NCBI GenBank assembly: GCA_963725665.1
Contig: CAVRZA010000008.1
Coordinates: 128,001-192,000 of the forward strand
Origin: an uncultured Actinomycetes bacterium
GTDB lineage: Bacteria > Actinomycetota > Thermoleophilia > UBA2241
DNA: 64,000 bases
Direction of reading: 5' to 3'
The notes below the pieces were generated by a model, which saw nothing but the letters and a program-made list of their open reading frames with translations, searched no databases and was not told the origin of the DNA. Shown piece by piece: positions 15,069 to 28,397 of the stretch. Made by a program: the position numbers and the translations under genes. Positions within the stretch are counted from its first letter, which is position 1, and each line of letters starts with the position of its first letter.

Positions 15069-16277
15069 TCAGAAGGAAGCCGGCCGCTCGCCCAACTTCA
15101 CCGTAAGGGTCTTCGTCGACGACCCGTGGACGATCGTGAGCTTCACCGTGTCGCCGGTCTTGTGGGAGTTGATGATGCCGGCGAGCTGGTCCATGCCCGT
15201 CAGGGCGGTGCCGTCGATGGACGTTATGATGTCGCCGCCGGTGACATAGGTCTGTCCCTGGATCGACTGCTGCTGAGAGCCGCCCTTGATGCCCGCCTTG
15301 GCTGCAGGGCTGCCCGAGACCACGCGGGCCACGAGGACCCCCTCGGTCGTCTTGAGGCCGAGCGTCTTGGCCACGTCGGGCGACAGCGTCTGCCCCTCGA
15401 TGCCCAGCCAGGCGTAGCTCACGCTGCCGCTGGTGCGCAGTTGGTTCATCACGTTCTCGGCGGTGTCGATGGGCACGGCGAAGCCCAGACCGGTATTGGC
15501 TCCGGTCGTCGAGGCGATCTGCTCGTTGATGCCGATCACCTGTCCGCTGCTGTCGATGAGGGGGCCGCCGGAGTTGCCTTCGTTGATGGCGGCGTCGGTC
15601 TGAATGCCGTTGGAGATCGTGGAGCCGTTGGGCGATTGGAGATTGCGATTGGTCGCCGAGACGATGCCCTCGGTGATCGAGAAGTCGTAGCCGAGTGGGT
15701 TGCCTATGGCCACCACCGGCTCGCCGGGTTGCACCGTGCTCGAGTCTCCGAGCGGGATCGGGTCGAGGGTGCCCACCTTGCTGGGGTCGACCTTGATCAG
15801 GGCCACGTCGCTCGTGTTGTCGGCGCCCACGACGGTGCCGGTGACGGTCTTGGTCTGCGTGCCCGTCCCCTTGAAGACGACCTGGACCGTCTTGACCGTC
15901 TGGCCGTTGTCGCTGACCACGTGGGCGTTGGTGAGGATGTAGCCGTCGTTCGTGACGACGAAGCCGGAGCCCAGTGCCTGCTGCGTCTGGGGACCGAAGA
16001 ACTGCTGGTTGGCGCTGCTGGAGAACGTGGAGATGATCTCGACTACGCCTTGAGCGTACTTCTGGTAGATCTCACTCGCGGAGAGGCCGCCGCTCGTTGA
16101 AGCGACCGGTTGTGTGGCCGACGATGTCGTCGTCGACGACGTCGCCGCGGCCGCACGCTCCACGACCGTCGTCTGCGTTGTCTTGACCGGAACGATGCCG
16201 GCGGCCATCAGGGCGATCAACAGCAGGATCGTGACGGCGACACCGAACAGAAAGACAGTGATGTGCGAGCGCCTCAT
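15069..16277 (-). CDS. htrA: HtrA/DegP-like serine protease with N-terminal TM and one PDZ domain
   Basis: TNAHVV, DVAL, IQTDAAINEGNSGGPL triad motifs; WLGI..GSPAAKAG PDZ. Confidence 0.93.
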   Translation of the reverse strand: MRRSHITVFLFGVAVTILLLIALMAAGIVPVKTTQTTVVERAAAATSSTTTSSATQPVASTSGGLSASEIYQKYAQGVVEIISTFSSSANQQFFGPQTQQALGSGFVVTNDGYILTNAHVVSDNGQTVKTVQVVFKGTGTQTKTVTGTVVGADNTSDVALIKVDPSKVGTLDPIPLGDSSTVQPGEPVVAIGNPLGYDFSITEGIVSATNRNLQSPNGSTISNGIQTDAAINEGNSGGPLIDSSGQVIGINEQIASTTGANTGLGFAVPIDTAENVMNQLRTSGSVSYAWLGIEGQTLSPDVAKTLGLKTTEGVLVARVVSGSPAAKAGIKGGSQQQSIQGQTYVTGGDIITSIDGTALTGMDQLAGIINSHKTGDTVKLTIVHGSSTKTLTVKLGERPASF

Positions 16278-16337
16278 TCGTGCCTCCTTCGCGGCCGTAC
16301 ATGCACAATCGCGACCGCCCTCGAACAGATCATCCCT

Positions 16338-16392
16338 CTTGTAGCCGAGGCAGCTATGGCGAACCTGTACCGTTGCTTGGAGATAGCTGTGA
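16338..16392 (-). promoter_or_regulatory. htrA promoter with four OmpR/PhoP-type half-sites
   Basis: Minus strand TCACAGC-N4-TCCAAGC-N4-GTACAGG-N4-CCATAG, 10 nt, TACAAG. Confidence 0.65.
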
Positions 16393-16444
16393 CTCTCGCC
16401 GCGAAAGGTGTGAAACGCGGCGCAGGCGAGTACTCTTGAGACAT

Positions 16445-16499
16445 GCACAGGTCCTTCACAGGAAGGGCACAGTCTCCTCCAACGGGGCGACCGTAACCT
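16445..16499 (+). promoter_or_regulatory. Two-component operon promoter with four half-sites (putative autoregulation)
   Basis: GCACAGG-N4-TCACAGG-N4-GCACAGT-N4-TCCAAC, 10 nt, TAACCT. Confidence 0.7.
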
Positions 16500-16528
16500 C
16501 CGGTCGTAGCGAAGGAGAGGGGGATGAT

Positions 16529-17221
16529 GTGGGCGCGCAACAGAAGGTCCTCGTCGTAGACGACGAAGAAAGCCTCACCGATCTCATCGGCCTGGCGCTG
16601 CGCTACGAGCAGTTCGAGGTCGCCGTCGCCCACACGGGCCACGAGGCGTTGAGCTCGGTGCACTCCTTCCACCCCGACCTGGTGGTGCTGGATGTCATGA
16701 TGCCCGGCATCGACGGCTTCGAGGTCGCCCGGCGCCTGGCCGGCGAGGCGCCCTCGACGCCGATACTCTTTCTCACCGCCCGCGACGCGACCGAGGATAA
16801 GATCCGCGGCCTCACGTTGGGCGGCGACGACTACATGACGAAACCCTTCAGTCTCGAGGAGCTCGTCGCTCGCATCCGCGCCGTCCTGCGGCGCACCCAG
16901 CGCGCCGGCGAGGAGCCCGCCGTGCTCTCGTTTGCCGATCTGGAGATGAACGAAGACACCTACGAAGTGCACCGCAACGGCACGCCGGTCGAGCTGACCG
17001 CCACGGAGTACAAGCTGCTGCGTTACCTCATGATGAATCCTCGGCGCGTGCTCTCGAAGGCGCAGATCCTCGATCGCGTGTGGAACTACGATTTCGGCGG
17101 CGACGCCAACGTCGTGGAGATCTACATCAGCTACCTGCGCAAGAAGCTCGACCCCCTCGGCTCGCCGCTCATCCACACCGTGCGCGGCTTCGGCTACTGC
17201 CTGCGCGAAGCGCGGGAGTAG
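16529..17221 (+). CDS. OmpR/PhoB-family response regulator (PhoP/TrcR-like)
   Basis: VLVVDDE, VLDVMMP, DDYMTKPFS, VWNYDFGGDANVVEIYISYLRKK, HTVRGFGY. Confidence 0.95.
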   Translation: MGAQQKVLVVDDEESLTDLIGLALRYEQFEVAVAHTGHEALSSVHSFHPDLVVLDVMMPGIDGFEVARRLAGEAPSTPILFLTARDATEDKIRGLTLGGDDYMTKPFSLEELVARIRAVLRRTQRAGEEPAVLSFADLEMNEDTYEVHRNGTPVELTATEYKLLRYLMMNPRRVLSKAQILDRVWNYDFGGDANVVEIYISYLRKKLDPLGSPLIHTVRGFGYCLREARE

Positions 17222-17223
17222 GC

Positions 17224-18726
17224 GTGTCACTGCGGCTCCGCCTCCTGCTGGCGCTCGTCGCCCTCGTCGCCGTCGGGCTGCTGGTCGCCGACGCGGTGAC
17301 CTACGCGTCGCTGCGCTCGTTTCTCGTCACTCGCGTGGACCAGCAACTCGAGCAGGCTCGCGGCCCGGCCGTGCGAGCGCTGCTGGAGTCGGGCAGCGGC
17401 GGCTCGCCGTCGCTCCCCGGCGGGCCGCCCGGCGGCGTGCCGAACCTGCCTCCCGGCACCTACGTGGCCATCATCGACAGCTCAGGCAGGACGGTGAGCG
17501 CGACCGCGTTCACCTACGGGGGAGAGTCCGTGGCGCCTCCCTCGCTGCCGAGCGACCTCAGCAAGCTCGTCACTACGAACCCCGAAGGGGCGACCGTAAC
17601 GGTCGGCGCTACGGGCTCGCGGCTCACCTATCGCGTGCTTGTCTGGGGGGTGACGGCGACGACCGGTGCTGACTACATCGTCGTGGTGGCCGTCCCGCTG
17701 AGCGACCTCAAGCAGACGCTCGGGCGGCTCCTGCTGATCGAGGTTCTGGTGACGGTCGGCGTGCTGCTTGGTCTCGGCGGGCTGGCGTGGTGGATCGTGC
17801 GCCGCGAGATGCGCCCGCTCGAGGACATGGCGGTGACCGCCGGCGCCATCGCCGCCGGCGATCTCACGCGGCGCGTCGAGCCCGCCGAGCCGCGCACGGA
17901 AGTCGGGCGGCTCGGCCTGGCCCTCAACGCCATGCTGGCACAGATCGAGCAGGCGTTCGCGCGCCGCAAGGCTTCCGAAGACGCCTTGCGGCGCTTCCTG
18001 GCGCAAGCCTCCCACGAGCTGCGCACGCCGCTGGCCTCGATCCGCGGCTACGCTGAACTGTTCCGGCGTGGCGCCAAGGACCGCCCTGAGGACCTCGAGC
18101 TCGCCATGCGCCGGATCGAGCAGGAGGGAGCGCGCATGGGCGTGCTCGTCGAGGAGCTGCTGTTGCTGGCGAGGCTCGACGAGGGGCGACCGCTCAAACG
18201 CGAGCCCGTCGATCTCGCACAGGTGGCGACCGACGCCGTGGCCGATGCCCGGATCACGGACCCCGGGCGCGTCATCGACCTTGCCGTGAGCGATCCCGTC
18301 GTCCTTGAGGGTGACGAGGTCCGGCTACGCCAGGTCGCTGCGAATCTCGTGATGAACGCCTTGGTCCATGCCGGGCCGGAGGCGCAGGTTCTTGTCGGCG
18401 CTCGGGCCCACGACGGCTGGGCCGAGCTCGAGGTGTCCGACGATGGCGTCGGCATGTCTCCGGAGGTGGCGGAGCACGTCTTCGAGCCGTTCTTCCACGC
18501 CGACGGCGAACCGGGCGAGGAGTCGTCGCCCGGCGAGGCCAAGGCCAAGAGCACGACGGGTCTCGGCCTCGCCATCGCGCTGGGCATCGCCCAGGCGCAC
18601 GGGGGGACGATCGATCTGCGCACTGCGCCCGGACAAGGCTCTGACTTCATCGTGCGTCTGCCGCTCGACACTGGGGAGCGCTCCGCGCCGGAGTCGCCAG
18701 AGCCGTTGCGCGCGCAGCAGCCCTGA
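17224..18726 (+). CDS. HAMP-domain sensor histidine kinase
   Basis: Two TMs, HAMP, ASHELRTPL H-box, N-box, DDGVG and GLGLAI. Confidence 0.95.
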   Translation: MSLRLRLLLALVALVAVGLLVADAVTYASLRSFLVTRVDQQLEQARGPAVRALLESGSGGSPSLPGGPPGGVPNLPPGTYVAIIDSSGRTVSATAFTYGGESVAPPSLPSDLSKLVTTNPEGATVTVGATGSRLTYRVLVWGVTATTGADYIVVVAVPLSDLKQTLGRLLLIEVLVTVGVLLGLGGLAWWIVRREMRPLEDMAVTAGAIAAGDLTRRVEPAEPRTEVGRLGLALNAMLAQIEQAFARRKASEDALRRFLAQASHELRTPLASIRGYAELFRRGAKDRPEDLELAMRRIEQEGARMGVLVEELLLLARLDEGRPLKREPVDLAQVATDAVADARITDPGRVIDLAVSDPVVLEGDEVRLRQVAANLVMNALVHAGPEAQVLVGARAHDGWAELEVSDDGVGMSPEVAEHVFEPFFHADGEPGEESSPGEAKAKSTTGLGLAIALGIAQAHGGTIDLRTAPGQGSDFIVRLPLDTGERSAPESPEPLRAQQP

Positions 18727-18760
18727 CGCGGACCCATCCGACTCGGGACTCGTCCGACAC

Positions 18761-19615
18761 TCATGCGGAGCGTGTCCAGGTCGACTTCGCCCAGGCGGGC
18801 TCCACATCGACGAGGGGATGCCGGCGGACCTTTGCCGGCCGGGCCGAGGGTCTCGCCACGACAGCGGCTCCCAGCTGCCCATGGAGGAACTGGTCGAGCG
18901 ACGGCCCTATCCACGCCGCCAGCGTCTCGTGGTCGGCGCTCGCCAGGGGCTCCTGCCAGAGGAGGTAGCGGCTCACCGCGAGGCCGAGGAGCTGTGCGAA
19001 GGCCAGGCGGGCGCGAGGGTAGGCGTCGGTGGTCGGACGCTCCTCGACGAAGGGCCGGATGAGCGCGCCGAGGATGTGACCTTCCAGGGCCGCCGCGAGG
19101 CGGCGATCGCGGCAGGCGGCGCGCAGAAGCTCACGCAGGATCGGGCCGTTCTCGTCGCGCTCCCAGAACGCCAGGCAGCGGAGGACGATCTCATGGCCCG
19201 GCAGGGTGAGCGCCGCTTGTGACCAGTCGCCATCGCCGAGCGCCGACAGCACGAGCTCGGCCTTCGAGGGGAGGACCCGCTCGAGGTCCTCTGTCTCGAT
19301 GCCTGCCAGACGGGCGACGTAGGGGTAGGTCATCGCCTCGTAACCGACCTCGGCGAGAGCCTGCGCGACGACCGCGCTGGCGGCCCGGCGCACGCGGTCG
19401 TCGCGCAGGCGCCGCGTGAGACGCCGTGCAGCCTCCTCGTCGACAGGGTTGAAGGCGGACGTACCGTCGAGCCCGGGGAGGCTGCCGTTCGTCTGGCGAA
19501 GGACAACGGTCCCCTCGTCCCAGCCGTGGCTGTCCGCCTGTTGCGTCTGGGCGGACAGGGTGCACGGCCGGCCCTCCGGAGGGCGCCGCTTCGTCGGTGT
19601 GCACGGGATGCTCAT
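18761..19615 (-). CDS. TetR/AcrR-family regulator-like protein with long N-terminal extension
   Basis: LAEVGYEAMT..VARLAGI..SKAEL HTH; RARLAFAQLLGLAVSRYLL..EPLASA C-terminal pattern; SD GGAAGGA. Confidence 0.75.
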   Translation of the reverse strand: MSIPCTPTKRRPPEGRPCTLSAQTQQADSHGWDEGTVVLRQTNGSLPGLDGTSAFNPVDEEAARRLTRRLRDDRVRRAASAVVAQALAEVGYEAMTYPYVARLAGIETEDLERVLPSKAELVLSALGDGDWSQAALTLPGHEIVLRCLAFWERDENGPILRELLRAACRDRRLAAALEGHILGALIRPFVEERPTTDAYPRARLAFAQLLGLAVSRYLLWQEPLASADHETLAAWIGPSLDQFLHGQLGAAVVARPSARPAKVRRHPLVDVEPAWAKSTWTRSA

Positions 19616-19661
19616 CTCACGATCCTTCCGGTCGATGCTCTGCGTCACTCTGCACACGAAC

Positions 19662-19716
19662 GTTCTAGTCGGCGGAAATGTGGGGGGGCTGAGAGGTCGG
19701 TGGGGCAGGGCTGAGA
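19662..19716 (-). promoter_or_regulatory. TetR-like gene promoter with four half-sites
   Basis: Minus strand TCTCAG-N5-CCCCAC-N5-TCTCAG-N5-CCACAT, 10 nt, TAGAAC. Confidence 0.55.
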
Positions 19717-19802
19717 CTCCGCGCAGGGACTGTGGGCAGCGTGGCAGGGGATGACGTCCAGCCTCGCGCGGGCGAGATGCCTCTTGCTTTCTTCGTTCGA
19801 AT

Positions 19803-19857
19803 CCTCAGGGCCCTCACAGGTCGCCCAAAGGTTCTCTTCAGGGCGGGGCGCGAGAGT
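19803..19857 (+). promoter_or_regulatory. ABC operon promoter with four half-sites
   Basis: CCTCAGG-N4-TCACAGG-N4-CCAAAGG-N4-CTTCAG, 10 nt, GAGAGT. Confidence 0.6.
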
Positions 19858-19884
19858 GATGAAAAACGACCGAAGGAGTCAGGG

Positions 19885-20625
19885 GTGAGTCGTTCGGGGA
19901 CGCCTCCCGTCCCGACGAGGGGGAACGGAACAGACGTCATTCTTGACGCGGTCGGCATCGAACGCACCTACCGTCACGGCGACATCGCCTTGCCCGTCCT
20001 TTACGACCTCGACCTGCAGGTCCGCCGCGGCGAGTGGGTCGCTTGCACCGGCCGCTCCGGTTCGGGAAAGTCGACCTTGCTCAACGTGCTTGGACTCCTC
20101 GATCGTGCCGACGCGGGCTCGTACTTCCTCGCCGGCCAGGACGTCTCGGGGCTCGACGACATCGGCAGGGCTCAGCTGCGCAATCGACTGCTTGGGTTTG
20201 TCTTCCAGCTTCACAACCTGCTCCCGCGCACGAGCGCGCTCGAGAACGTGGCGACACCACTCGTCTATCGCGGCGTACGTCGGCCCGAGCGCCTGCGGCG
20301 GGCGCGTGAGGCGCTTGCTGCGGTCGGGCTCGAAGATCGCGCCGATTACGATCCCGGTCGTCTCTCAGGGGGCCAAATGCAGCGGGTGGCCATCGCACGA
20401 GCCCTGGTCGGCGACCCCGAGCTGCTACTCGTCGATGAGCCCACCGGCAACCTCGACCTCGTAGCAACCAGCGAGGTCCTCGAGCTCCTGGACCGACTCC
20501 ATGACTGGGGCCGCACCATCGTCATGATCACCCATGAGGAAGACGTCGCCGAGCACGCCGATAGGCGGCTGGTACTCGCCGATGGCAGGTTGCACGACCA
20601 CGACTCCGCGGAGGCACATCTATGA
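19885..20625 (+). CDS. MacB/LolD-type ABC transporter ATP-binding protein
   Basis: GRSGSGKS Walker A, GFVFQ.HNLL, LSGGQMQRVAIARAL, DEPTGNLD, ITH; GTG 19885 follows SD AAGGAG. Confidence 0.92.
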   Translation: MSRSGTPPVPTRGNGTDVILDAVGIERTYRHGDIALPVLYDLDLQVRRGEWVACTGRSGSGKSTLLNVLGLLDRADAGSYFLAGQDVSGLDDIGRAQLRNRLLGFVFQLHNLLPRTSALENVATPLVYRGVRRPERLRRAREALAAVGLEDRADYDPGRLSGGQMQRVAIARALVGDPELLLVDEPTGNLDLVATSEVLELLDRLHDWGRTIVMITHEEDVAEHADRRLVLADGRLHDHDSAEAHL

Positions 20626-21623
20626 AGTCATCGGACAGACGTCCGGCGAGGCCATTGGGCCAGAGCGGCCAACGAGGCTCGGGTGCAGTCGCCGTCGTCG
20701 CCCTGCTTGCTGTGACGGCGGCCGCGACCGTTGGCTGTGGCAGCTCCAGCAGTACAGCCTCGACGGGCAATCAGGGCGGTGTCCCCACCTCCATCCAGGT
20801 CGTCGCCACGGTCCAACGCGGCGATATCGTGCAGTCGGTGACCGGCAGCGCGAAGCTCGCGACCTCGAACGGCAAGACGGTTGCGGTCACACAGGTCACC
20901 CAGCAGAACGCGGCCTTTGTCGCCGTCGGCCAGAAGGCCACGGTGATGGTCGTTCGCCCGCGCACAGGGGCTCAGGGCGCCTCCGCGCTGCCCCAGCCCG
21001 GTCAGAGTGGGATGCCCCAACCGGGTCAGAGTGGGATGCCCCAACCGGGTCAGAGCGGCATGCCCCAACCGGGTCAGAGCGGCATGCCCCAACCGGGTCA
21101 GAGCGGCATGCCCCAGCCTGGTCAGAGTGGCTTTCCTGGCGGCCAGGACGGACAGGGGGGCTTCAACGGTGGTGGCTTCGGCGGGAACGCGTTCGGCGGA
21201 CTTGGCACGTCCGGCACGGTGACCAAGGTGACGAGCAACGCCGACGGCTCGGCGACGGTGACGGTCACGCTCAGCAAGAAGCCGGCCAACGCGTCAGCCG
21301 CCTCAACAGGCTTCGCGAGCATCCAGACCAAGGTACTGGCCGCCGACGTGCTGATCATCCCCACGGCCGCGATCAAGGGCAGCGGTAGCTCGGCCACCGT
21401 GCAGGTTCTGACGAGCGGCAAGACCAGCACGGTGTCGGTCGAGGTCGGCCAGCAGTCGGGCGGCGAGTCTGAGATCGTGTCGGGCCTGAGCGAGGGCCAG
21501 AACGTGGTGTACACGCGCTCGTTCCGGCGAGGCGCGTTCCCCGGCAACGGGAATGGTCCGGCTCCGGGCCAGAGCGGCGCTCCCTTCCCGCCCGGCGGTC
21601 AGTCGAACGGAGGTTCCCTGTGA
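20622..21623 (+). CDS. Lipoprotein, degenerate MacA/YknX-like adaptor with PQPGQSGM repeats
   Basis: Hydrophobic signal ending TVGC; VATVQRGDI..SVTG, VAVGQKAT, VLIIPTAAI, EIVSGLSEGQNVV adaptor motifs. Confidence 0.7.
   Translation: MKSSDRRPARPLGQSGQRGSGAVAVVALLAVTAAATVGCGSSSSTASTGNQGGVPTSIQVVATVQRGDIVQSVTGSAKLATSNGKTVAVTQVTQQNAAFVAVGQKATVMVVRPRTGAQGASALPQPGQSGMPQPGQSGMPQPGQSGMPQPGQSGMPQPGQSGMPQPGQSGFPGGQDGQGGFNGGGFGGNAFGGLGTSGTVTKVTSNADGSATVTVTLSKKPANASAASTGFASIQTKVLAADVLIIPTAAIKGSGSSATVQVLTSGKTSTVSVEVGQQSGGESEIVSGLSEGQNVVYTRSFRRGAFPGNGNGPAPGQSGAPFPPGGQSNGGSL
20991..21134 (+). repeat. In-frame 24-bp tandem repeat x6 encoding PQPGQSG(M/F)
   Basis: CCCCARCCNGGTCAGAGYGGSATG units, seen directly. 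Confidence 0.95.
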
Positions 21624-23506
21624 GCGCGAGTCAAGCCGCGGCGTCCGAGACTCTCGCTCCGGAGGCGGCCGCAGCGACCACGGCGATCGTGAAGAAGCGT
21701 AGGCGCTGGTGGATCGTCGCGATCTTCGTGATCGCCATCGCGGCCGCAGTGGCAGGTTGGTACTTCTGGTTCGGCCGCAACACGACAGCGGCTGTGCACT
21801 ACCTCACGGCTACCGCCTCCACCGGCACCATCGCCCAGTCGGTCCGAGTCGACTTCACGTTGGGCTCGACCAACGGGGTGACGACCATCGCGCTGGGTGG
21901 TTCGTCGGCCAGTAGCTCGTCGAGCAGCAGCTCCACAGGCAGCAGCTCGACGGCCAGCACTTCGGCGACCGCGAGCGTCGGTGCGACGGCGAGTCTGGCG
22001 TCCAGCCGTAAGGCAGCCGTAAGCAGCGAGAGCCTCACCACGTTCGCCGCCATGAGCACCGGTGGCGAAAGCTTGGCGGATGTCGCGGCGCCGGCAATCA
22101 CGGCCTTGATTCCAACCTACGGCCCGGTGGGTAGCAGCGTGACCATGGTCGGCAGCGGTTTCACCGGCGCTACGGCGGTCGCCTTCAACGGCCGTGCGGC
22201 AACCTTCACCGTGAACAGCGACACGCAGATCACGGCGATTGTGCCCGCCGGTGCCACAAGCGGCTCGGTCACTGTCACCGCTCCAGGCGGCACGGCCACC
22301 AGCGCGGCGAGCTTCACGGTCAAGCCCACGGTCAAGCCGACCCCGTCGAGCAGTAGCAGGCCCTCGCCCACGCCGACTTCATCGAGCAGGAGCGGCGGCG
22401 GTGGCTCGTTTAGCGGTAGCGCCAACAGCGGCGCCAGCACGACGTCAGGCAGCCTCAGCAGCGGCAGTACGTCCTCGGGGAGCAGCTCATCGGCTTCGTC
22501 CGGCCTCAGCGGAGTGGTCACCCACATCTGGCTGCGAGCCGGCGCTACGCCGCATACCCTGCAGCGCCTGCTCACCGTCTCGGGTACGCAGGTGTACGCG
22601 TTCGTGAGCCCCACGCCGCTGTGGAAGAACCTCTCCACGGATCTGGCGACGGGATCGCAGCGGGCCAACGTCGCCGCCCTGCAACGTGCCCTCAAGAAGG
22701 GCGGCTACTACACGGGCACGATCAACGGGGACTTCACATCGGCCACGGCGACCGCCTATGAGGCGTGGCAGGCCGACCATGGGATGACCAAGACGGGAGT
22801 CGTGAGCGTCACCCGCTTCGTGTGGATACCGACGGGGAGCATCATCACCTCCTGGAGCGTGAACCCGGGCAACCGGGTGAGCTCGGGAACCGCTCTGGCC
22901 TCCGTGGTCGCCCCCAACGAGCTGAGCGCCACGGCTCTTGTGAGCCAGGCCGACATCGCCAGTCTTAAGGTCGGTCAGAAGGCGCAGATGACGATCGATG
23001 GCTACACCAGCGACACGTTCACGGGGACCGTCAGCTACATCTCGAGCCAGCCGGCGTCCTCCTCCTCCGCAAGCTCGTCCAGCTCAGCGCAGTACTCGAT
23101 CACCATCAGGCCCCGCGGCCTTCCCAAGGTAGCCAAATCCGGGATGACCGGGACGCTCGAGATCGTCATCGCCCAACGCAAGAACGTGCTGCTCGTGCCC
23201 ACCAGCGCCGTGTCGGGGACGGGAACCACCTCCTATGTGCGCGTGATGATGAACGGCTCGCCCCAGTACAGGCAGGTGCAGACCGGCATGGCCACGTCGT
23301 CCTACACGCAGATAACGAGCGGGCTCACCGCCGGAGAGGTCGTGGTGACCGGCCAGTACACGAACAACGCCACGAGTGGCAGCAGCACCGGCACGAACGG
23401 CTCCAACGGTGGGGGCTTCTTCCGCCAGGGTGGTGGCGGCTTCCCGCAGGGCGGCTTCCCGCAGGGCGGCTTCCCGCAGGGCGGCTTGCCGGGCGGTGGC
23501 CAGTGA
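21620..23506 (+). CDS. Membrane-anchored MacA/YknX-like adaptor with IPT/TIG and peptidoglycan-binding domains
   Basis: KKRRR plus TM; PAITAL.P..GPVGSSVT..GSGF..FNG..SDTQIT..VPAGA (IPT/TIG); VAALQRAL..GYY.G..GDF..T..WQ (PG-binding); DIASLKVGQKA, VLLVPTSAV, SGL.AGEVVV. Confidence 0.8.
   Translation: MSASQAAASETLAPEAAAATTAIVKKRRRWWIVAIFVIAIAAAVAGWYFWFGRNTTAAVHYLTATASTGTIAQSVRVDFTLGSTNGVTTIALGGSSASSSSSSSSTGSSSTASTSATASVGATASLASSRKAAVSSESLTTFAAMSTGGESLADVAAPAITALIPTYGPVGSSVTMVGSGFTGATAVAFNGRAATFTVNSDTQITAIVPAGATSGSVTVTAPGGTATSAASFTVKPTVKPTPSSSSRPSPTPTSSSRSGGGGSFSGSANSGASTTSGSLSSGSTSSGSSSSASSGLSGVVTHIWLRAGATPHTLQRLLTVSGTQVYAFVSPTPLWKNLSTDLATGSQRANVAALQRALKKGGYYTGTINGDFTSATATAYEAWQADHGMTKTGVVSVTRFVWIPTGSIITSWSVNPGNRVSSGTALASVVAPNELSATALVSQADIASLKVGQKAQMTIDGYTSDTFTGTVSYISSQPASSSSASSSSSAQYSITIRPRGLPKVAKSGMTGTLEIVIAQRKNVLLVPTSAVSGTGTTSYVRVMMNGSPQYRQVQTGMATSSYTQITSGLTAGEVVVTGQYTNNATSGSSTGTNGSNGGGFFRQGGGGFPQGGFPQGGFPQGGLPGGGQ
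23435..23488 (+). repeat. In-frame 15-bp repeat encoding GGFPQ x3 plus a partial unit
   Basis: GGCGGCTTCCCGCAG tandem copies at the adaptor C-terminus. Confidence 0.85.
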
Positions 23507-24696
23507 TCGTCTTCCTCGAATCGCTGCGCCTGGCGTTCGCGAGCCTGCGCGCTCACCCGCTACGTGCCGTCCTGACCATCCTGGGGATCGTCATCGGTGT
23601 CGCGGCGGTGGTCGCGCTGACCTCGATCGGCTCAGGCTCCACGCGTGCCGTGGAGAACCGCTTCAACGCCTTCGGCACGGACACCATCACCGTGCAGACG
23701 AGCCGCTTCTCGTCCAACGCGACGCCGATCTCAACGAGCGATCTCGCCGCCATCAAGGCGACACCTGGGGTGAAGGGCACGGTCTACTCGGTCGACACCA
23801 GCGCGACGGTCAGGTACGGCTCGTCGACCGCCATGGAGACCGTCACGGGCACGTTCCCGCAGTTCAAGACGATCGACCACCTGACGGTCGCAGCCGGCAC
23901 CTTCTTCAGTCAGTTCGATGTCGATCACGGCCTACCCGTGGCGGTGCTCGGATCGACGGTCGCCGACGACCTCAACCTGACCCCGCTGCGCGCCGTGGGC
24001 CAGACGATCAACGTGGGTGGCGTGCAGTTCCAGGTAGTCGGCGTGCTGGCGGAGCAGGGCGGCGTGGGTTTCGCATCGGTCGACTCGAGCATCCTCGTTC
24101 CCCTGACCTCCATCGAAGGCCGGCTCGTCGCCTTCCATCCTGACATCTCCGAGGTGCGTGTGCAGGCGCAGCCCGGCTCTCAGGACACCTTCGAGGCCGC
24201 TGTCGAGAGCACACTGCGCACCCAACACAACCTGAGTGCCAGTGAGCAGAACGACTTCCAAATCGTCAACGCCAGCTCGATTGCCTCGGCGGTCTCATCC
24301 AGCACCGCTACCCTCACCAAGCTGATGGCGGCCATCGCCGCCATCAGCCTCGTCGTGGGCGGTATCGGGGTCGCCAACGTGATGCTCGTCACCGTGCGCG
24401 AACGGACGCGAGAGATCGGCGTGCGGCGCGCTGTGGGAGCGATGCGGAGAGACATCGTCGTCCAGTTCCTCGTCTACTCGATCGTGATCAGCGTGATCGG
24501 TGGCATCCTGGGTCTGGGTGCGGGCATCGCCAGCGCCTTCGTCGGTGGTTCCGCGATGAGCGTCTCGCCGGTGTTCTCCGCGACAACGGTCACGCTGGCG
24601 ATCGTCGTGGCGACCGCCGTGGGCATCCTCGCCGGCATCGGACCCGCAGCGCAGGCAGCCTCTGTGGAGCCGACCACGGCGCTGCGCTACGAGTAA
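23503..24696 (+). CDS. MacB/FtsX-family ABC permease
   Basis: RAVLTILGIVIGVAAVV, SLVVGGIGVANVM.V.V.ERTREIGVRRAVGA, ALRYE end. Confidence 0.95.
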   Translation: MIVFLESLRLAFASLRAHPLRAVLTILGIVIGVAAVVALTSIGSGSTRAVENRFNAFGTDTITVQTSRFSSNATPISTSDLAAIKATPGVKGTVYSVDTSATVRYGSSTAMETVTGTFPQFKTIDHLTVAAGTFFSQFDVDHGLPVAVLGSTVADDLNLTPLRAVGQTINVGGVQFQVVGVLAEQGGVGFASVDSSILVPLTSIEGRLVAFHPDISEVRVQAQPGSQDTFEAAVESTLRTQHNLSASEQNDFQIVNASSIASAVSSSTATLTKLMAAIAAISLVVGGIGVANVMLVTVRERTREIGVRRAVGAMRRDIVVQFLVYSIVISVIGGILGLGAGIASAFVGGSAMSVSPVFSATTVTLAIVVATAVGILAGIGPAAQAASVEPTTALRYE

Positions 24697-24734
24697 CAGG
24701 GATCTTCTGCACGTACGCTGACGCACCGGCAGGC

Positions 24735-24789
24735 ACTCACCGTCCCTTCAGCGACTTCTCAGGATCGTCTCAGGGAGTGTCCCTACCAT
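24735..24789 (+). promoter_or_regulatory. Promoter of the DUF4405-ferredoxin gene with four half-sites
   Basis: ACTCAC-N5-CTTCAG-N5-TCTCAG-N5-TCTCAG, 10 nt, TACCAT. Confidence 0.7.
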
Positions 24790-24861
24790 CCTCGTCTAAG
24801 GCCAATGGCGCGGCGGCTTAGTCTCAGGACGCCGCGGTGTAAGGATGCAGAGAAGGGAGCG

Positions 24862-25677
24862 GTGAAGTCGTCGATGAGGAGAGCGACCGTCAACTACTGG
24901 ATCGACGTCGTCATCGCTGTCGCGTTCCTGCTTAGCACCTTGACCGGCATCCTGTTCCTGCTGCCGGGGCTACGCTCAGTCTCGCCCGCGGGAGCGGTCA
25001 CCATCCTGGGCGTGAGCACCCTGACGTGGCACACGATCCACGACTGGAGTGGGGTGATCGCCGCTGCCGGGGTCATCGCGCACGTCTTGCTCCACTTGCG
25101 CTGGATCGCCACGATGACCCGCCGTATGGCCCTGCCGGAGGGCCGGGCTGCACGGCGGGTGACCACCCCACCCGCCGCGCAGCCCGGCCCCGCGACCCAG
25201 ACACAGCCGACGGTCTCGGCATCCTCGGTCGGGGTCCGTGCGGCGGGCGTCGAGCGCGACGCCGGAGACGACGACCGGCTCTCGCGGCGCACGTTTCTGC
25301 TCGGCCTGGGCGCAGCGGCCGGCGCGACGGCCTTCCTGGGAGTCACAGCTTTGCTGAAGGCTCAACCCGGAAGCGCCGCCGGGACGCAGGTGGCGAGTTC
25401 GCAACAGAGCGGCTCGGGAGGTTGGTCTCAGGGCGGCGGACAGGGCGGCGGCTCCACCCAGGGCGACGGTGGCTCGACGGGGTCGACTGACAGCGTCCAG
25501 CGGGTGATCGTCGATTCCGCGGCGTGCGTGGGCTGCGGGCGCTGCCTGGATGTCTGTCCCTACGATGTCTTCGCTTGGAACGGCGGCAAGGCAGCGGCGC
25601 AGAGTCCCGGCGCCTGCCGCCTGTGCGGCCACTGCCTGCAGGTCTGCCCGGCGGGCGCTATCACGCTGAACGGCTGA
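24862..25677 (+). CDS. DUF4405-like His-rich membrane domain + internal twin-arginine TM + 2x[4Fe-4S] ferredoxin
   Basis: NYWID..TG.L, WHTIHDWSG..IAHVLLHLRWI; LSRRTFLLG; CVGCGRCLDVCP and CRLCGHCLQVCP; start could be 24862 or 24874. Confidence 0.8.
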   Translation: MKSSMRRATVNYWIDVVIAVAFLLSTLTGILFLLPGLRSVSPAGAVTILGVSTLTWHTIHDWSGVIAAAGVIAHVLLHLRWIATMTRRMALPEGRAARRVTTPPAAQPGPATQTQPTVSASSVGVRAAGVERDAGDDDRLSRRTFLLGLGAAAGATAFLGVTALLKAQPGSAAGTQVASSQQSGSGGWSQGGGQGGGSTQGDGGSTGSTDSVQRVIVDSAACVGCGRCLDVCPYDVFAWNGGKAAAQSPGACRLCGHCLQVCPAGAITLNG

Positions 25678-25678
25678 A

Positions 25679-25712
25679 GCGGCGGCAACCGGCCTCCGCC
25701 GGTCGCCGCCGC
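25679..25712 (+). terminator. GC-rich hairpin after the ferredoxin-fusion gene
   Basis: GCGGCGGCAACCGGC-CTCC-GCCGGTCGCCGCCGC; no U-tract. Confidence 0.5.
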
Positions 25713-25779
25713 GACCGGGGCACCCTGGAGCGCCCTCGCGCTCGCGAGCGCGCCGTGAGCCGGGTATACACTCGCTGCC

Positions 25780-28397
25780 ATGAGGATCCGCGAGCTCATC
25801 GTCACGCACTCCAACACCGACTTCGACGCCTTCGCCGGCATGGTCGCGGCGCACAAGCTCTACCCGGAGGCGACGATCGTCCTGTCGGGGGCTCTGAACC
25901 GCAACGTGCGCGAGTTCGCCACTCTGCATGCCGAGCAGATCGAGACGGCGGAGGCGGCGGCCGTCGAGCCGCGCTACGTCAAACGCCTGATCCTGGTGGA
26001 GACGATGCACCCCAACCGCCTCGGCGAGCTGGGGCCTCTCTGCTACCAGAAGGGCGTCGAGGTGGTCGTCTTCGACCACCACCGGCCCGAGGTGGAGCCG
26101 CCCGACTTCGTGCACGAGAACAACTTCATCACCTCGCGAGGACGGCTCCCTGGTGACGCTCATGCTGCGCATCATCGCCGAGCGCGGCATCGAGGTGACG
26201 CTCCCTCGAGGCGACCGTGTTCGCACTCGGCATCCACGAGGACACCGGCTCGCTCGGCTTCTCGACGGCGACCGTGCGCGACGCGGAGGCGCTCGCCTTC
26301 TGCATGCGTCAGGGCGCCAGCCAGACGCTGATCGAGCGCTACCTGCACAACCCGCTCACGCAGCAGCAGCGCGAGCTCCTGCGCCACGTGCTCGACACCG
26401 TCGAGAGCCTCTCCGTGGCCGGTCTCGAGGTGCTCATCGGCGCCGTGAAGGAGACGGAGTACGTCGAGGGCGTGAGCGTGGTGGCGCACAAGGTCGTCGA
26501 CCTCACCAACTGCGACGCCTTCTTCCTGCTCGTGGAGATGGAGAAGCGCGTGTTCGTGACGGCGCGCGGCCGCGGCGGCCTGCTCGACGTGGCGGCGGTG
26601 CTCAGGCCGCTCGGCGGCGGCGGCCACGTCGCCGCCGCCTCGGGCATCCTCAAGGACCAGAGCCTGACGCAGGTCAAGCGGCGGCTGCGCGCTTCGCTGC
26701 GCGTGGTCGCGGCCCAAGTGCGCACGGCCGAGTCGGTGATGTCGAAGCCGCTGCACTGGGTGACCACCGAGGCCACCGTAGACGAGGCCCTGGTGACCTG
26801 CCAGCGCTACGGCTACGGCGGGCTGTCGGTGATCGACGACGGCCTGCTCGTCGGCTCGGTGGCGCGCCGTGACCTCGACCGCGCCGTCTCCCACCGTCTC
26901 GGGCACGCTCCCGTCAAGGCGGTCATGACCAGCGAGGCGCCCTACGCCCGCGCCTCGACGCCCGTCGAAGAGCTCGCCAAGCTGATGGCGCGCGATCCTC
27001 TGGGGCGCGTGCCCATCGTGCGTGACGACGCCGACGAGCCCGTCGCTCTCGACGATGTCGTCGGCGTCGTCACGCGCTCGGACCTGTTGCGCGAGTTGCA
27101 CAGGCGCGCGGCGCCGGAGCGCGTACCGACGGCGGTCAACGTGGCCGAGCGCCTGCGCGCGCTGGGGCTCGACGAGTTCTTCGCGCTGGTCGAGGCCGTC
27201 GCGGTGACGTATCGCGGCGTCTACCTGGTCGGCGGCTTCGTGCGCGACCTGCTCCTTGAAGAGCGCAACCTCGACGTCGACATCGCCGTCGAGGGCGACG
27301 GCATCGAGTTCGCACGGGAGCTGGCGCGGCGGCTCAAGGGGCGCGTGCGCGCGCACAGCAAGTTCCAGACCGCGGTCGTCATCGCCCCGGCGAGCTACGG
27401 CCGCGAACGCTTCCGCGTCGACGTCGCCTCGACGCGCACGGAGTTCTACGACTTCCCGGCCGCTCTGCCGAAGGTGGAACACACCACGATCCGCAACGAC
27501 CTGGCGCGGCGTGACTTCGCCATCAACGCCATGGCTGTCTCTCTCAAGCCCGAGGACTTCGGCGTCTTGCTCGACTACTTCGGCGGCCTCGAGGACCTGC
27601 ACCGCAAGCGCATCCGCGTGCTGCACAACCTGAGCTTCATCGAGGACCCGACGCGCATCTTCCGCGCCATCCGCTACGAGAGCCGCTACGGCTTGCGTAT
27701 GGACCGCCACACGCTCAGCCTGGCCAAGAGCTGCAGCGACATGGACCTGATCGGCGACCTCTCCTCGGCGCGGCTGCGTGACGAGCTGATCCTGCTCTTC
27801 AGCGAGCCCAAGGTGGAGTTCGCCTTGCGCCGTCTGCGCGACCTCGAGCTGCAGAACGCCGTCCACCCGCGCCTCGTCCTGGGCGAAGAGACGGATCGCC
27901 TGCTACGCGCCGGCGACGCCGCTTGGCGGCGCTTCAAGCTCGCCGGCGAGGTGCCGCTCTGGCGGCTGCGGCTGGTGTGGCTCCTGCGCCGTCTGAAGCC
28001 GGAGGAGATCGAGTCGTGGACGGTGCGCATGCGCTTCAGGGCGCGCGACGGCGAGGTGTTGTCGCGCTCGTGGGTGATCGGCCGACGTCTGACGGAGCGC
28101 GTCGCCGCGGGGATGGGCGACGCCGACCTCTACGAGGCGGCGCGGGGCGAGCCGCTCGAGGCGGTGCTCGTCGCCCTCGTCAGCGCCCGCGGCTCGGCCG
28201 CCGAGGAGCGGCTCGCGCACTTCCTGGAGACGACGCGCTTCGTGCACCTCGATGTCTCGGGGGATGACCTGCTGGCGCTCGGCTTCGATGAGTCACCGCA
28301 GCTCGGCGAGGTCTTGCGCACGCTGCTGCGCCTGAAGCTCAACGGCGTCATCGCGTCGCGGGAGGAGGCGCTCGAGACGGCGCGGCGCCTGCGCTAG
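25780..28397 (+). CDS. DHH-DHHA1-CBS-CBS class II tRNA nucleotidyltransferase, two +1 frameshifts (probable assembly errors)
   Basis: THSNTDFDA, DHH, GGGH, CBS pair, YLVGGFVRDLL..DVDI, RTEFY, DLARRDFAINA, FIEDPTR; extra bases near 26137 and 26202. Confidence 0.9.

Follow-up and report, generated by a model that had tools for sequence, protein, structure and literature searches.

Can the promoters of one short chromosomal locus, all carrying the same direct repeats, be placed under a single two-component system, and what kind of system would this be? The question is raised by positions 15,069 to 25,677 of the window, as the whole stretch of 64,000 nucleotides (nt) analysed here is called, which is contig C8:128001-192000 of the genome of an uncultured soil bacterium of the Thermoleophilia (3.73 Mb, 68% G+C, 12 contigs). 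In this locus, a response regulator and its sensor histidine kinase lie among genes for an HtrA-type protease, a TetR-like protein, a MacB-type exporter and a fusion of a DUF4405 membrane domain with a ferredoxin. The reading favoured here, to which a probability of about three in four can be given, is that of an autoregulated system of the PhoP type, which would activate a regulon for the quality of the envelope and of secreted proteins, through two tandem regulator dimers replacing the -35 element. Its nearest named relatives are metagenome-assembled genomes.

Five promoters of 55 nt carry most of the argument. They are listed with their four half-sites, the spacer, the -10-like hexamer, the number of matches to TCWCAG out of 24 (counted by hand) and the score obtained with the matrix described further on.

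16392 to 16338, minus strand: htrA promoter; TCACAG/TCCAAG/GTACAG/CCATAG, 10 nt, TACAAG; 18/24; matrix 24.1
16445 to 16499, plus strand: regulator/kinase promoter; GCACAG/TCACAG/GCACAG/TCCAAC, 10 nt, TAACCT; 19/24; matrix 33.9
19716 to 19662, minus strand: promoter of the TetR-like gene; TCTCAG/CCCCAC/TCTCAG/CCACAT, 10 nt, TAGAAC; 19/24; matrix 27.7
19803 to 19857, plus strand: promoter of the ABC exporter operon; CCTCAG/TCACAG/CCAAAG/CTTCAG, 10 nt, GAGAGT; 19/24; matrix 29.6
24735 to 24789, plus strand: promoter of the ferredoxin fusion; ACTCAC/CTTCAG/TCTCAG/TCTCAG, 10 nt, TACCAT; 20/24; matrix 35.1

The original prediction, made from the window alone, had described four TCWCAG-like half-sites at an 11-base-pair (bp) period, with 10 nt between the last of them and a -10-like hexamer, and the sequence agrees with this description in all five cases. 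The period of 11 bp is kept throughout, with individual units matching at 3/6 to 6/6 and totals of 18 to 20 out of 24. Upstream of the regulator/kinase promoter, a weak fifth unit is found at 16434. If transcription is assumed to start 7 nt past the hexamer, the predicted leaders are about 23 nt long for the regulator, 55 for htrA, 40 for the TetR-like gene, 21 for the exporter ATPase and 78 for the ferredoxin fusion.

The genome-wide weight of these repeats was evaluated with a 55-nt matrix, for whose training 32 sites from 20 loci of relatives were used and none from this genome. The training sites had first been chosen by the TCWCAG consensus, and the matrix is thus independent of the sequences of this genome, not of the idea of the motif. 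Over both strands (7.46 million positions), at least 20 bits were reached at only six positions, namely the five promoters of the locus and one further site at C1:236198-236252 (37.1 bits). The seventh-best score is 16.3, with a genome mean of -48.6 and a standard deviation of 11.4, and a matrix scan of the kind originally proposed thus separates the locus promoters cleanly from the rest of the genome. In the reversed, non-complemented genome, no position reaches 20 bits and the top score is 16.5. Resetting the half-site blocks to periods of 9, 10, 12 and 13 bp gives 0, 0, 1 and 0 matches, versus six at 11 bp. The sole period-12 match is a CCACAGCCCACA tandem repeat with a unit of 12 nt on contig C2 (C2:168089); it was rejected as an operator, being probably a tandem repeat of the coding type.

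Simpler counts were also made. With the crude TCWCAG consensus score, 11 positions of the genome reach at least 19/24, five of which lie in this locus and cover four of its promoters. The pattern CWCAG-N6-CWCAG-N6-CWCAG, with at most two mismatches, occurs six times in the window, versus 1.16 ± 1.27 times in shuffled sequences, and none of the 100 shuffles reaches six; the motif thus exceeds what shuffled DNA yields, as had been anticipated. With at most one mismatch, the same triple pattern was counted 185 times in 31 family genomes, versus 31 times in the reversed control, overlapping registers being included in these counts.

The locus had been presented as a self-contained regulon of five promoters, and on both points the description has to be widened. 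A sixth full operator/promoter, with the highest matrix score of the genome, is the site found on contig C1, where it precedes a glycosyltransferase gene of the GT2 type with a GtrA_DPMS_TM domain (C1:234955-236252 with the site). Its hexamer is TACGAT and the ATG lies 7 nt past it, so that the transcript would be leaderless. Orthologues of this GT2-GtrA gene in three relatives' loci (L133, L134, L137) have the same array and the same leaderless layout. The spacer of 10 nt is exact in all six full sites of this genome. A scan restricted to the three proximal half-sites and the -10 hexamer recovered only five of these same six promoters, while scanning with the arrays alone added only C4:126384 and the leader of a protease gene on contig C6, at about 20.7 bits.

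This C6 gene (C6:164030-164253) deserves a side remark. It encodes a trypsin-like protease of 302 amino acids (aa) without PDZ domain; about 190 nt upstream of it, two perfect TCTCAG units stand in a weaker array with no TAnnnT at the correct distance. In its long leader, TTAACAG units spaced by 11 bp are also present, which another regulator might bind. In relatives (L155, L158), the orthologues have full arrays and long leaders too (165-203 nt).

The arrays are not limited to one genome. Orthologous two-component loci were located by kinase matches (E <= 1e-40), which were obtained in all 24 family genomes searched and in 34 of the 41 genomes overall, and regions of 14 kb were taken from 20 genomes. 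An array stands upstream of the orthologous regulator with a spacer of 10 nt in 14 of these 20 loci, and with a spacer of 11 nt in two more. When arrays of at least 16/24 with TAnnn[TC] at 9-12 nt were counted in the 20 loci, the distance to TAnnn[TC] was exactly 10 nt in 32 of 36 arrays and 11 nt in the other four. The layout of the htrA promoter is also seen before htrA in six relatives' loci (L031, L034, L037, L038, L039 and L042), ABC operons beginning with the ATPase gene carry the same array in L143-L146 and L167, and arrays precede the orthologous DUF4405-ferredoxin gene in seven. Synteny in related genomes thus supports the grouping, the same arrays preceding the orthologous regulator and its neighbouring genes.

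Which genes follow the signal was tallied for 73 sites of at least 18 bits in 60 loci, that is, the 20 loci around the two-component system and 40 pattern matches elsewhere (15 genomes); as the training set supplied 32 of the 73 sites and all others were preselected by pattern, the tally tells what follows the signal and not how sensitive its detection is. The regulator comes first with 15 sites, followed by MacB operons beginning with the permease gene (11), HtrA with PDZ domain (9), DUF4405-ferredoxin (7), trypsin-like proteases without PDZ (5), ABC operons beginning with the ATPase gene (5) and GT2-GtrA (3). A protein of 479 aa, of unassigned function, accounts for two sites, while Zn_peptidase_2 and a lipoprotein-like protein of 496 aa account for one each. 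Other genes make up nine sites, and no open reading frame was retained by the filter used at the last five. The protein of unassigned function (477-479 aa; L135:362-1801 and L171:362-1795) has a full array with leaderless layout in two genomes of one genus, where it would belong to the regulon, and it has no Pfam match.

Which protein reads these sites? The local regulator has the two domains of the OmpR/PhoB family (Pfam Response_reg, E 6.9e-31; Trans_reg_C, E 1.4e-28), and the aspartate of its LDVMMPG motif aligns with the same motif in Mycobacterium tuberculosis PhoP. This protein is also its closest solved relative (PDB 3r0j/5ed4; E 2e-80, 272 bits, about 56% identity, or 127/226 by hand count), ahead of PrrA (178 bits), RegX3 (175 bits) and MtrA (172 bits). 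In the crystal structure of two PhoP protomers on TCACAGC-N4-TCACAGC, bases are read by N212, V213, E215, S216, Y217 and Y220, and R237 of the wing enters the minor groove (PMC4832192). The corresponding positions of the local regulator read N, V, E, I, Y, Y and R, six of the seven being the same. Five of the six helix contacts and the wing arginine are thus identical, as the originally proposed PhoP-like recognition helix would have it, and the mycobacterial PhoP box that had been quoted for comparison is indeed that of the crystal paper (PMC4832192). The single change replaces S216, described as the residue contacting the third base of the half-site (PMC4832192), with Ile; the base facing this position is A or T in the sites of this locus. 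The recognition helix, NVVEIYISYLRKK, is kept in 20/20 orthologues, with Ile or Thr at the S216 position. Among the approximately nine OmpR-family regulators of the genome, a PhoP-type helix is found only in the local one, the next paralogue being 44% identical with another helix.

The operators, TCACAGC-like direct repeats at an 11-bp period, look at the sequence level like those of PhoP-type regulators. The same unit is met further away: Corynebacterium glutamicum PhoR is described as binding CCTGTGAAaatCCTGTGAA, that is, 8-bp tandem repeats with a 3-bp linker (PMC3353115), which on the other strand corresponds to TTCACAGG units at an 11-bp period. This half-site is thus a trait of this regulator lineage. 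A second box quoted in the original prediction, TCTCAG-N5-TCTCAG for M. tuberculosis MprA, could not be confirmed in the literature searched.

A mechanism can be proposed on these grounds. The kinase would sense an extracytoplasmic signal through its cysteine-free domain of 143 aa and phosphorylate the regulator, which, judging from homology and from the layout of the sites, would then bind the four TCWCAG half-sites as two tandem head-to-tail dimers. The bound regulator would stand in for the -35 contact of sigma region 4 and activate transcription of its own operon, HtrA, the TetR-like protein, the MacB-type exporter, the ferredoxin fusion and the GT2-GtrA polyprenol-phosphate glycosyltransferase. 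The cryo-electron microscopy structures of M. tuberculosis PhoP activation complexes (9ji3-9ji5) contain one, two or three tandem dimers (2, 4 or 6 protomers) on sites spaced by 11 bp, and the downstream dimer overlaps the -35 region and displaces sigma region 4 (PMC11825685). If the hexamer is placed at -12 to -7, the half-sites here would lie at about -28/-23, -39/-34, -50/-45 and -61/-56. No -35 hexamer is recognisable in these promoters, and an array of four half-sites with a gap of 10 nt to the -10 thus fits the two-dimer version of the PhoP activation complex. A proximal repeat at fixed distance from the predicted -10, with no -35, has the appearance of an activator-type promoter, and activation appears from this geometry as the likeliest mode. 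Of the co-activation that had been put forward, the co-regulation is backed by the regulator, the arrays and the relatives, while the activating sense comes from geometry. The targets being extracytoplasmic proteases, exporters and envelope glycosylation, a role in envelope or secreted-protein stress is suggested, most likely as a response either to envelope and secreted proteins that are damaged or misfolded or to stress on the cell wall.

Several points weigh against this picture of an activating PhoP-type stress system. No array was found upstream of the regulator in four of the 20 relatives' loci (L035, L046, L048 and L050), and the tally of targets is subject to the preselection already mentioned. 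In this genome, several half-sites are poor, with 3/6 matches, a degeneracy that had been acknowledged from the outset, and two of the -10 hexamers, TACAAG and GAGAGT, are off-consensus. The kinship with PhoP is drawn from bit scores against solved structures rather than from a tree, in a comparison for which MprA-type regulators offer no solved full-length structure. No solved relative of the kinase sensor domain was detected, PhoR likeness included. The sequencing runs listed for 16000-25900 of the window were DNA metagenomes matching at most 0.35 of the sampled words, with no RNA run among them. Both the assignment of the -10 and the direction of regulation are read from geometry, and the stress signal is a guess from the functions of the targets.

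How else could the arrays be explained? The degeneracy of individual half-sites, and the fact that the consensus was originally derived from these same promoters, could suggest that the repeats arose by chance or from the base composition of GC-rich intergenic DNA. Training on relatives only is enough, however, for the matrix to pick these promoters out of the whole genome; apart from one tandem repeat, nothing comparable turned up in the controls with reversed genome, altered period or shuffled sequence, and the register to the -10 is kept across genera. Chance is refuted by the matrix and these controls together, and its remaining probability is negligible. The repeats could also be operators of another protein, their link with the two-component system being coincidental, as the genome has several other OmpR-family regulators and the locus itself contains a TetR-like gene. 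The sites of TetR proteins are palindromic, unlike four direct repeats one helical turn apart. The helix able to read TCACAG occurs only in the local regulator, with a different one in its next paralogue, and arrays lie directly upstream of the orthologous regulator gene in 16/20 loci, all of which makes a different binder highly improbable.

The same regulator might instead bind the arrays and repress, mainly or at some promoters, its proximal half-site in the -35/-10 spacer then blocking RNA polymerase. The fourth half-site indeed ends so near the -10 that its occupancy could occlude the polymerase, and mixed action has precedents: M. tuberculosis PhoP also forms a repression complex (PMC11825685), Streptomyces CutR activates htrA3 and represses htrB (PMC12802291), and C. 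glutamicum MprA acts negatively on some targets (PMC12113857). The missing -35 and the several weak -10 hexamers are nevertheless typical of activator-dependent promoters, the placement agrees with the PhoP activation complexes, in which the downstream dimer covers the -35 (PMC11825685), and the strict 10-nt register in 32/36 sites points more to a fixed contact with polymerase than to mere occlusion. Repression is thus considered unlikely, though less so than the other alternatives. A phosphate-starvation regulator comparable to C. glutamicum PhoRS, whose PhoR controls pstSCAB and binds CCTGTGAAaatCCTGTGAA, which corresponds to TTCACAGG units on the opposite strand (PMC3353115), would use the same half-site. 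In this genome, however, no phosphate-uptake or phosphatase gene follows any of the six full sites, and no phosphate-related Pfam family appeared among the relatives' downstream genes checked, no search having been aimed at pst genes or at weak single-dimer sites; a phosphate role is accordingly very improbable. The preferred reading remains the autoregulated, activating PhoP-type system.

The genes that follow the five promoters are listed here.

15069..16277, minus strand: htrA, membrane-anchored serine protease of HtrA/DegP type, 402 aa, with Trypsin_2 and PDZ domains
16529..17221, plus strand: response regulator of the OmpR/PhoB family, M. tuberculosis PhoP type, 230 aa (Pfam Response_reg, Trans_reg_C)
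17218..18726, plus strand: sensor histidine kinase, 502 aa, with HAMP, HisKA and HATPase_c (Pfam); its start overlaps the regulator stop by 4 nt
18761..19615, minus strand: TetR-like protein, 284 aa, gene convergent (Pfam TetR_C_16, E 5e-20)
19885..24696, plus strand: MacB-type exporter operon of four genes, each start overlapping the preceding stop (Pfam, NCBIfam, transmembrane helices)
19885-20625, plus strand: exporter ATPase (Pfam ABC_tran, E 1.3e-30)
20622-21623, plus strand: exporter adaptor 1, lipoprotein-like, with PQPGQSGM repeats
21620-23506, plus strand: exporter adaptor 2, HlyD (HlyD_3, E 7e-15) and PG_binding_1
23503-24696, plus strand: exporter permease (Pfam MacB_PCD, E 8.9e-38; FtsX, E 7.6e-16)
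24874..25677, plus strand: DUF4405-2x[4Fe-4S] ferredoxin fusion, 267 aa (Pfam DUF4405 and Fer4 families); the DUF4405 part resembles haem-b cytochromes and has two transmembrane helices, and the ferredoxin domain is C-terminal

The HtrA product combines Trypsin_2 (E 2.3e-35) and PDZ_2 (E 8.3e-15) with one N-terminal transmembrane helix at residues 6-24 by hydropathy, and its orthologues (61-70% identity) are divergent from the regulator in 6/20 relatives' loci. The kinase has two transmembrane segments by hydropathy, 9-27 and 171-189, which frame the extracytoplasmic domain. This sensor domain (residues 28-170) has no cysteine, and its orthologues in 18 aligned relatives have none or one; its conserved motifs are RVDQQL, LPPGTYG, FRVL and AIPL. 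Disulfide sensing as in CutS was rejected, the domain being without a cysteine pair. The TetR-like gene starts with ATG at 19615, preceded by GGAAGGA; its product has no Pfam TetR_N match even at E <= 1, the N-terminal helix-turn-helix being too diverged.

The exporter unites a MacB_PCD/FtsX permease, an ABC ATPase and an HlyD-type adaptor, and is thus of the MacB type. ATPase and permease are separate genes here, in contrast to the NCBIfam MacB model that was matched, NF007826, which describes a fused ATP-binding protein/permease. A MacAB-like transporter with two adaptors had been announced: permease, ATPase and HlyD adaptor are borne out by Pfam, while adaptor 1 is weakly adaptor-like, with 44 bits to an NCBIfam model, under the cut-off. 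Adaptor 1 also contains six PQPGQSGM units in tandem (20988-21135), which cause a spurious Pfam 'Cornifin' match. Adaptor 2 has long Ser/Thr-rich linkers and a weak match to NF058597, the model of a choice-of-anchor Z repeat domain.

The start of the ferredoxin fusion at ATG 24874 (MRRATVNYW...) is backed by the orthologue alignment (M-[RK]-[RK]-A), other possible in-frame starts being ATG 24805 and GTG 24862. In its leader (24796-24873), a G+C-rich inverted repeat (about 24808-24840) was noted, with another TCTCAG in the loop. Hydropathy gives three transmembrane helices, TM1 (12-30), TM2 (about 55-79) and TM3 (142-160), with a loop rich in arginine after TM2. The twin-arginine sequence LSRRTFLLG stands directly before TM3, which is weaker than TM1 (hydropathy 1.78 versus 2.68). 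Invariant in the orthologue alignment are H56, H70 and H74 in DUF4405, R138, F141 and L142 in [ST]R[RKH]xFL, and eight cysteines in two CxxCxxCxxxC motifs. Homologues were collected at E <= 1e-10 in 81 clusters, nearly all metagenomic and with generic names only. RR occurs in 46 of the 81 clusters and RK in 22, that is, an R[RK]xFL-type motif in 68/81; the pattern is not found in the other 13, seven of which are shorter than 190 aa.

If the N-terminus is inside, the Fe-S domain would lie outside the membrane, where it is probably placed by the Tat pathway. The features expected of dual Sec/Tat insertion are all seen in the sequence: internal motif, weak last helix, cofactor domain and a TatC gene in the genome. 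The exported Fe-S membrane protein that had been foreseen is thus consistent with the internal SRRTFL motif and TatC, its export being predicted. Actinobacterial Rieske proteins, an MsrQ/MsrP-like fusion and an NapH/NapG-like polyferredoxin are established cases of dual Sec/Tat insertion (PMC5449189), and the present fusion resembles the Rieske proteins, Sco3746 and the NapGH-like polyferredoxin in its Sec-type helices, internal twin-arginine, weak last helix and C-terminal cofactor domain (PMC5449189). The families which the text of that paper names do not include a three-helix DUF4405 protein fused to 2x[4Fe-4S], though its supplementary lists might (PMC5449189). The fusion looks like a further, undescribed example of the dual Sec/Tat type. 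DUF4405 proteins are described as binding haem b and are proposed as transmembrane electron carriers (PMC11334425). A narrow literature search on DUF4405 returned no link between DUF4405-ferredoxin fusions and a two-component system.

Beyond the regulon, at 25780-28397, a DHH/DHHA1-CBS-PolyA_pol gene (CCA-adding-enzyme-like) shows up as two open frames that overlap, one at 25780-26331 and the other at 26217-28397, which could reflect a frameshift, an assembly error or two genes.

What does this locus bring? A clean regulon defined from sequence, with six promoters, one grammar and one regulator, is obtained for an uncultured actinobacterial family. The DNA code of the PhoP lineage, in which TCACAG recurs at each helical turn, appears to be kept across actinobacterial classes with completely different targets, which bears on the origin of the present regulon of the tuberculosis regulator. 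The DUF4405-ferredoxin fusions, probably exported by Tat, receive a first functional context by being tied to HtrA proteases and MacB exporters. The PhoPR lineage is known from M. tuberculosis, where it regulates virulence, and from C. glutamicum, where it regulates phosphate genes (PMC3353115). One tentative and rather doubtful extension would see in it an ancestral quality control of envelope and secreted proteins, with a rigid four-half-site grammar kept in Thermoleophilia, where the Sec/Tat fusion might carry electrons outward, for instance in the repair or reduction of surface proteins that have been damaged, in analogy to MsrPQ. Current understanding is not overturned, as two-component control of HtrA proteases and exporters via direct repeats is well known.

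The comparison with known systems may start from the pho boxes of Escherichia coli PhoB, in which direct repeats of 11-bp period take the place of the -35 element and lie some 10 bp before the -10. The half-site has another sequence there, and every promoter of the present set has four half-sites, hence two dimers. Closer still is M. tuberculosis PhoPR, with which the TCACAG core and direct repeats at an 11-bp period are shared. The phoP promoter is reportedly autoregulated via direct repeats as well (Gupta et al. 2006). The tandem dimers over the -35 in PhoP complexes (PMC11825685) have their counterpart in the layout predicted here. Differences concern the residue at the S216 position, which is Ile or Thr in this lineage, with A or T as third base, and above all the targets: lipid, ESX-1 and other virulence-related genes are described for PhoP, in contrast to the proteases, MacB exporter, ferredoxin fusion and glycosyltransferase found here. 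C. glutamicum PhoRS (PhoS-PhoR) likewise combines an OmpR-type regulator, TTCACAGG units at an 11-bp period and autoregulation (PMC3353115), but it is described as controlling phosphate-starvation genes (pstSCAB and others), none of which is among the targets seen here.

In terms of function, the closest parallels lie elsewhere. In mycobacteria, the gene order is mprA-mprB-pepD, with the protease gene downstream of the regulator; in the present locus, by contrast, htrA is divergent from it. CssRS and CutRS of Streptomyces, and MprAB with PepD/HtrA of mycobacteria and C. glutamicum, also associate a membrane kinase with an OmpR-type regulator, are autoregulated and directly control HtrA-like proteases (PMC12802291, PMC12113857), and the C. 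glutamicum MprA regulon includes cell-envelope genes (PMC12113857). Their operators differ from the TCWCAG repeats, being TAWATAAA for CutR (PMC12802291) and TKTTAAGAAM for C. glutamicum MprA (PMC12113857). CutS and CssS have a conserved extracellular cysteine pair, which the local kinase lacks, and the NCBIfam CseB model gives the local regulator 199 bits, below its cut-off of 350. Membership in the CutRS/CssRS or MprAB systems was rejected on these grounds. The module had been offered as one not recognised as described; this holds for its regulon, which differs from that of PhoP, and not for the PhoP box, the tandem dimers or the two-component control of HtrA, all described before. The system would read DNA in the manner of the PhoP lineage, and most likely works like the envelope or secretion-stress systems CssRS, CutRS and MprAB.

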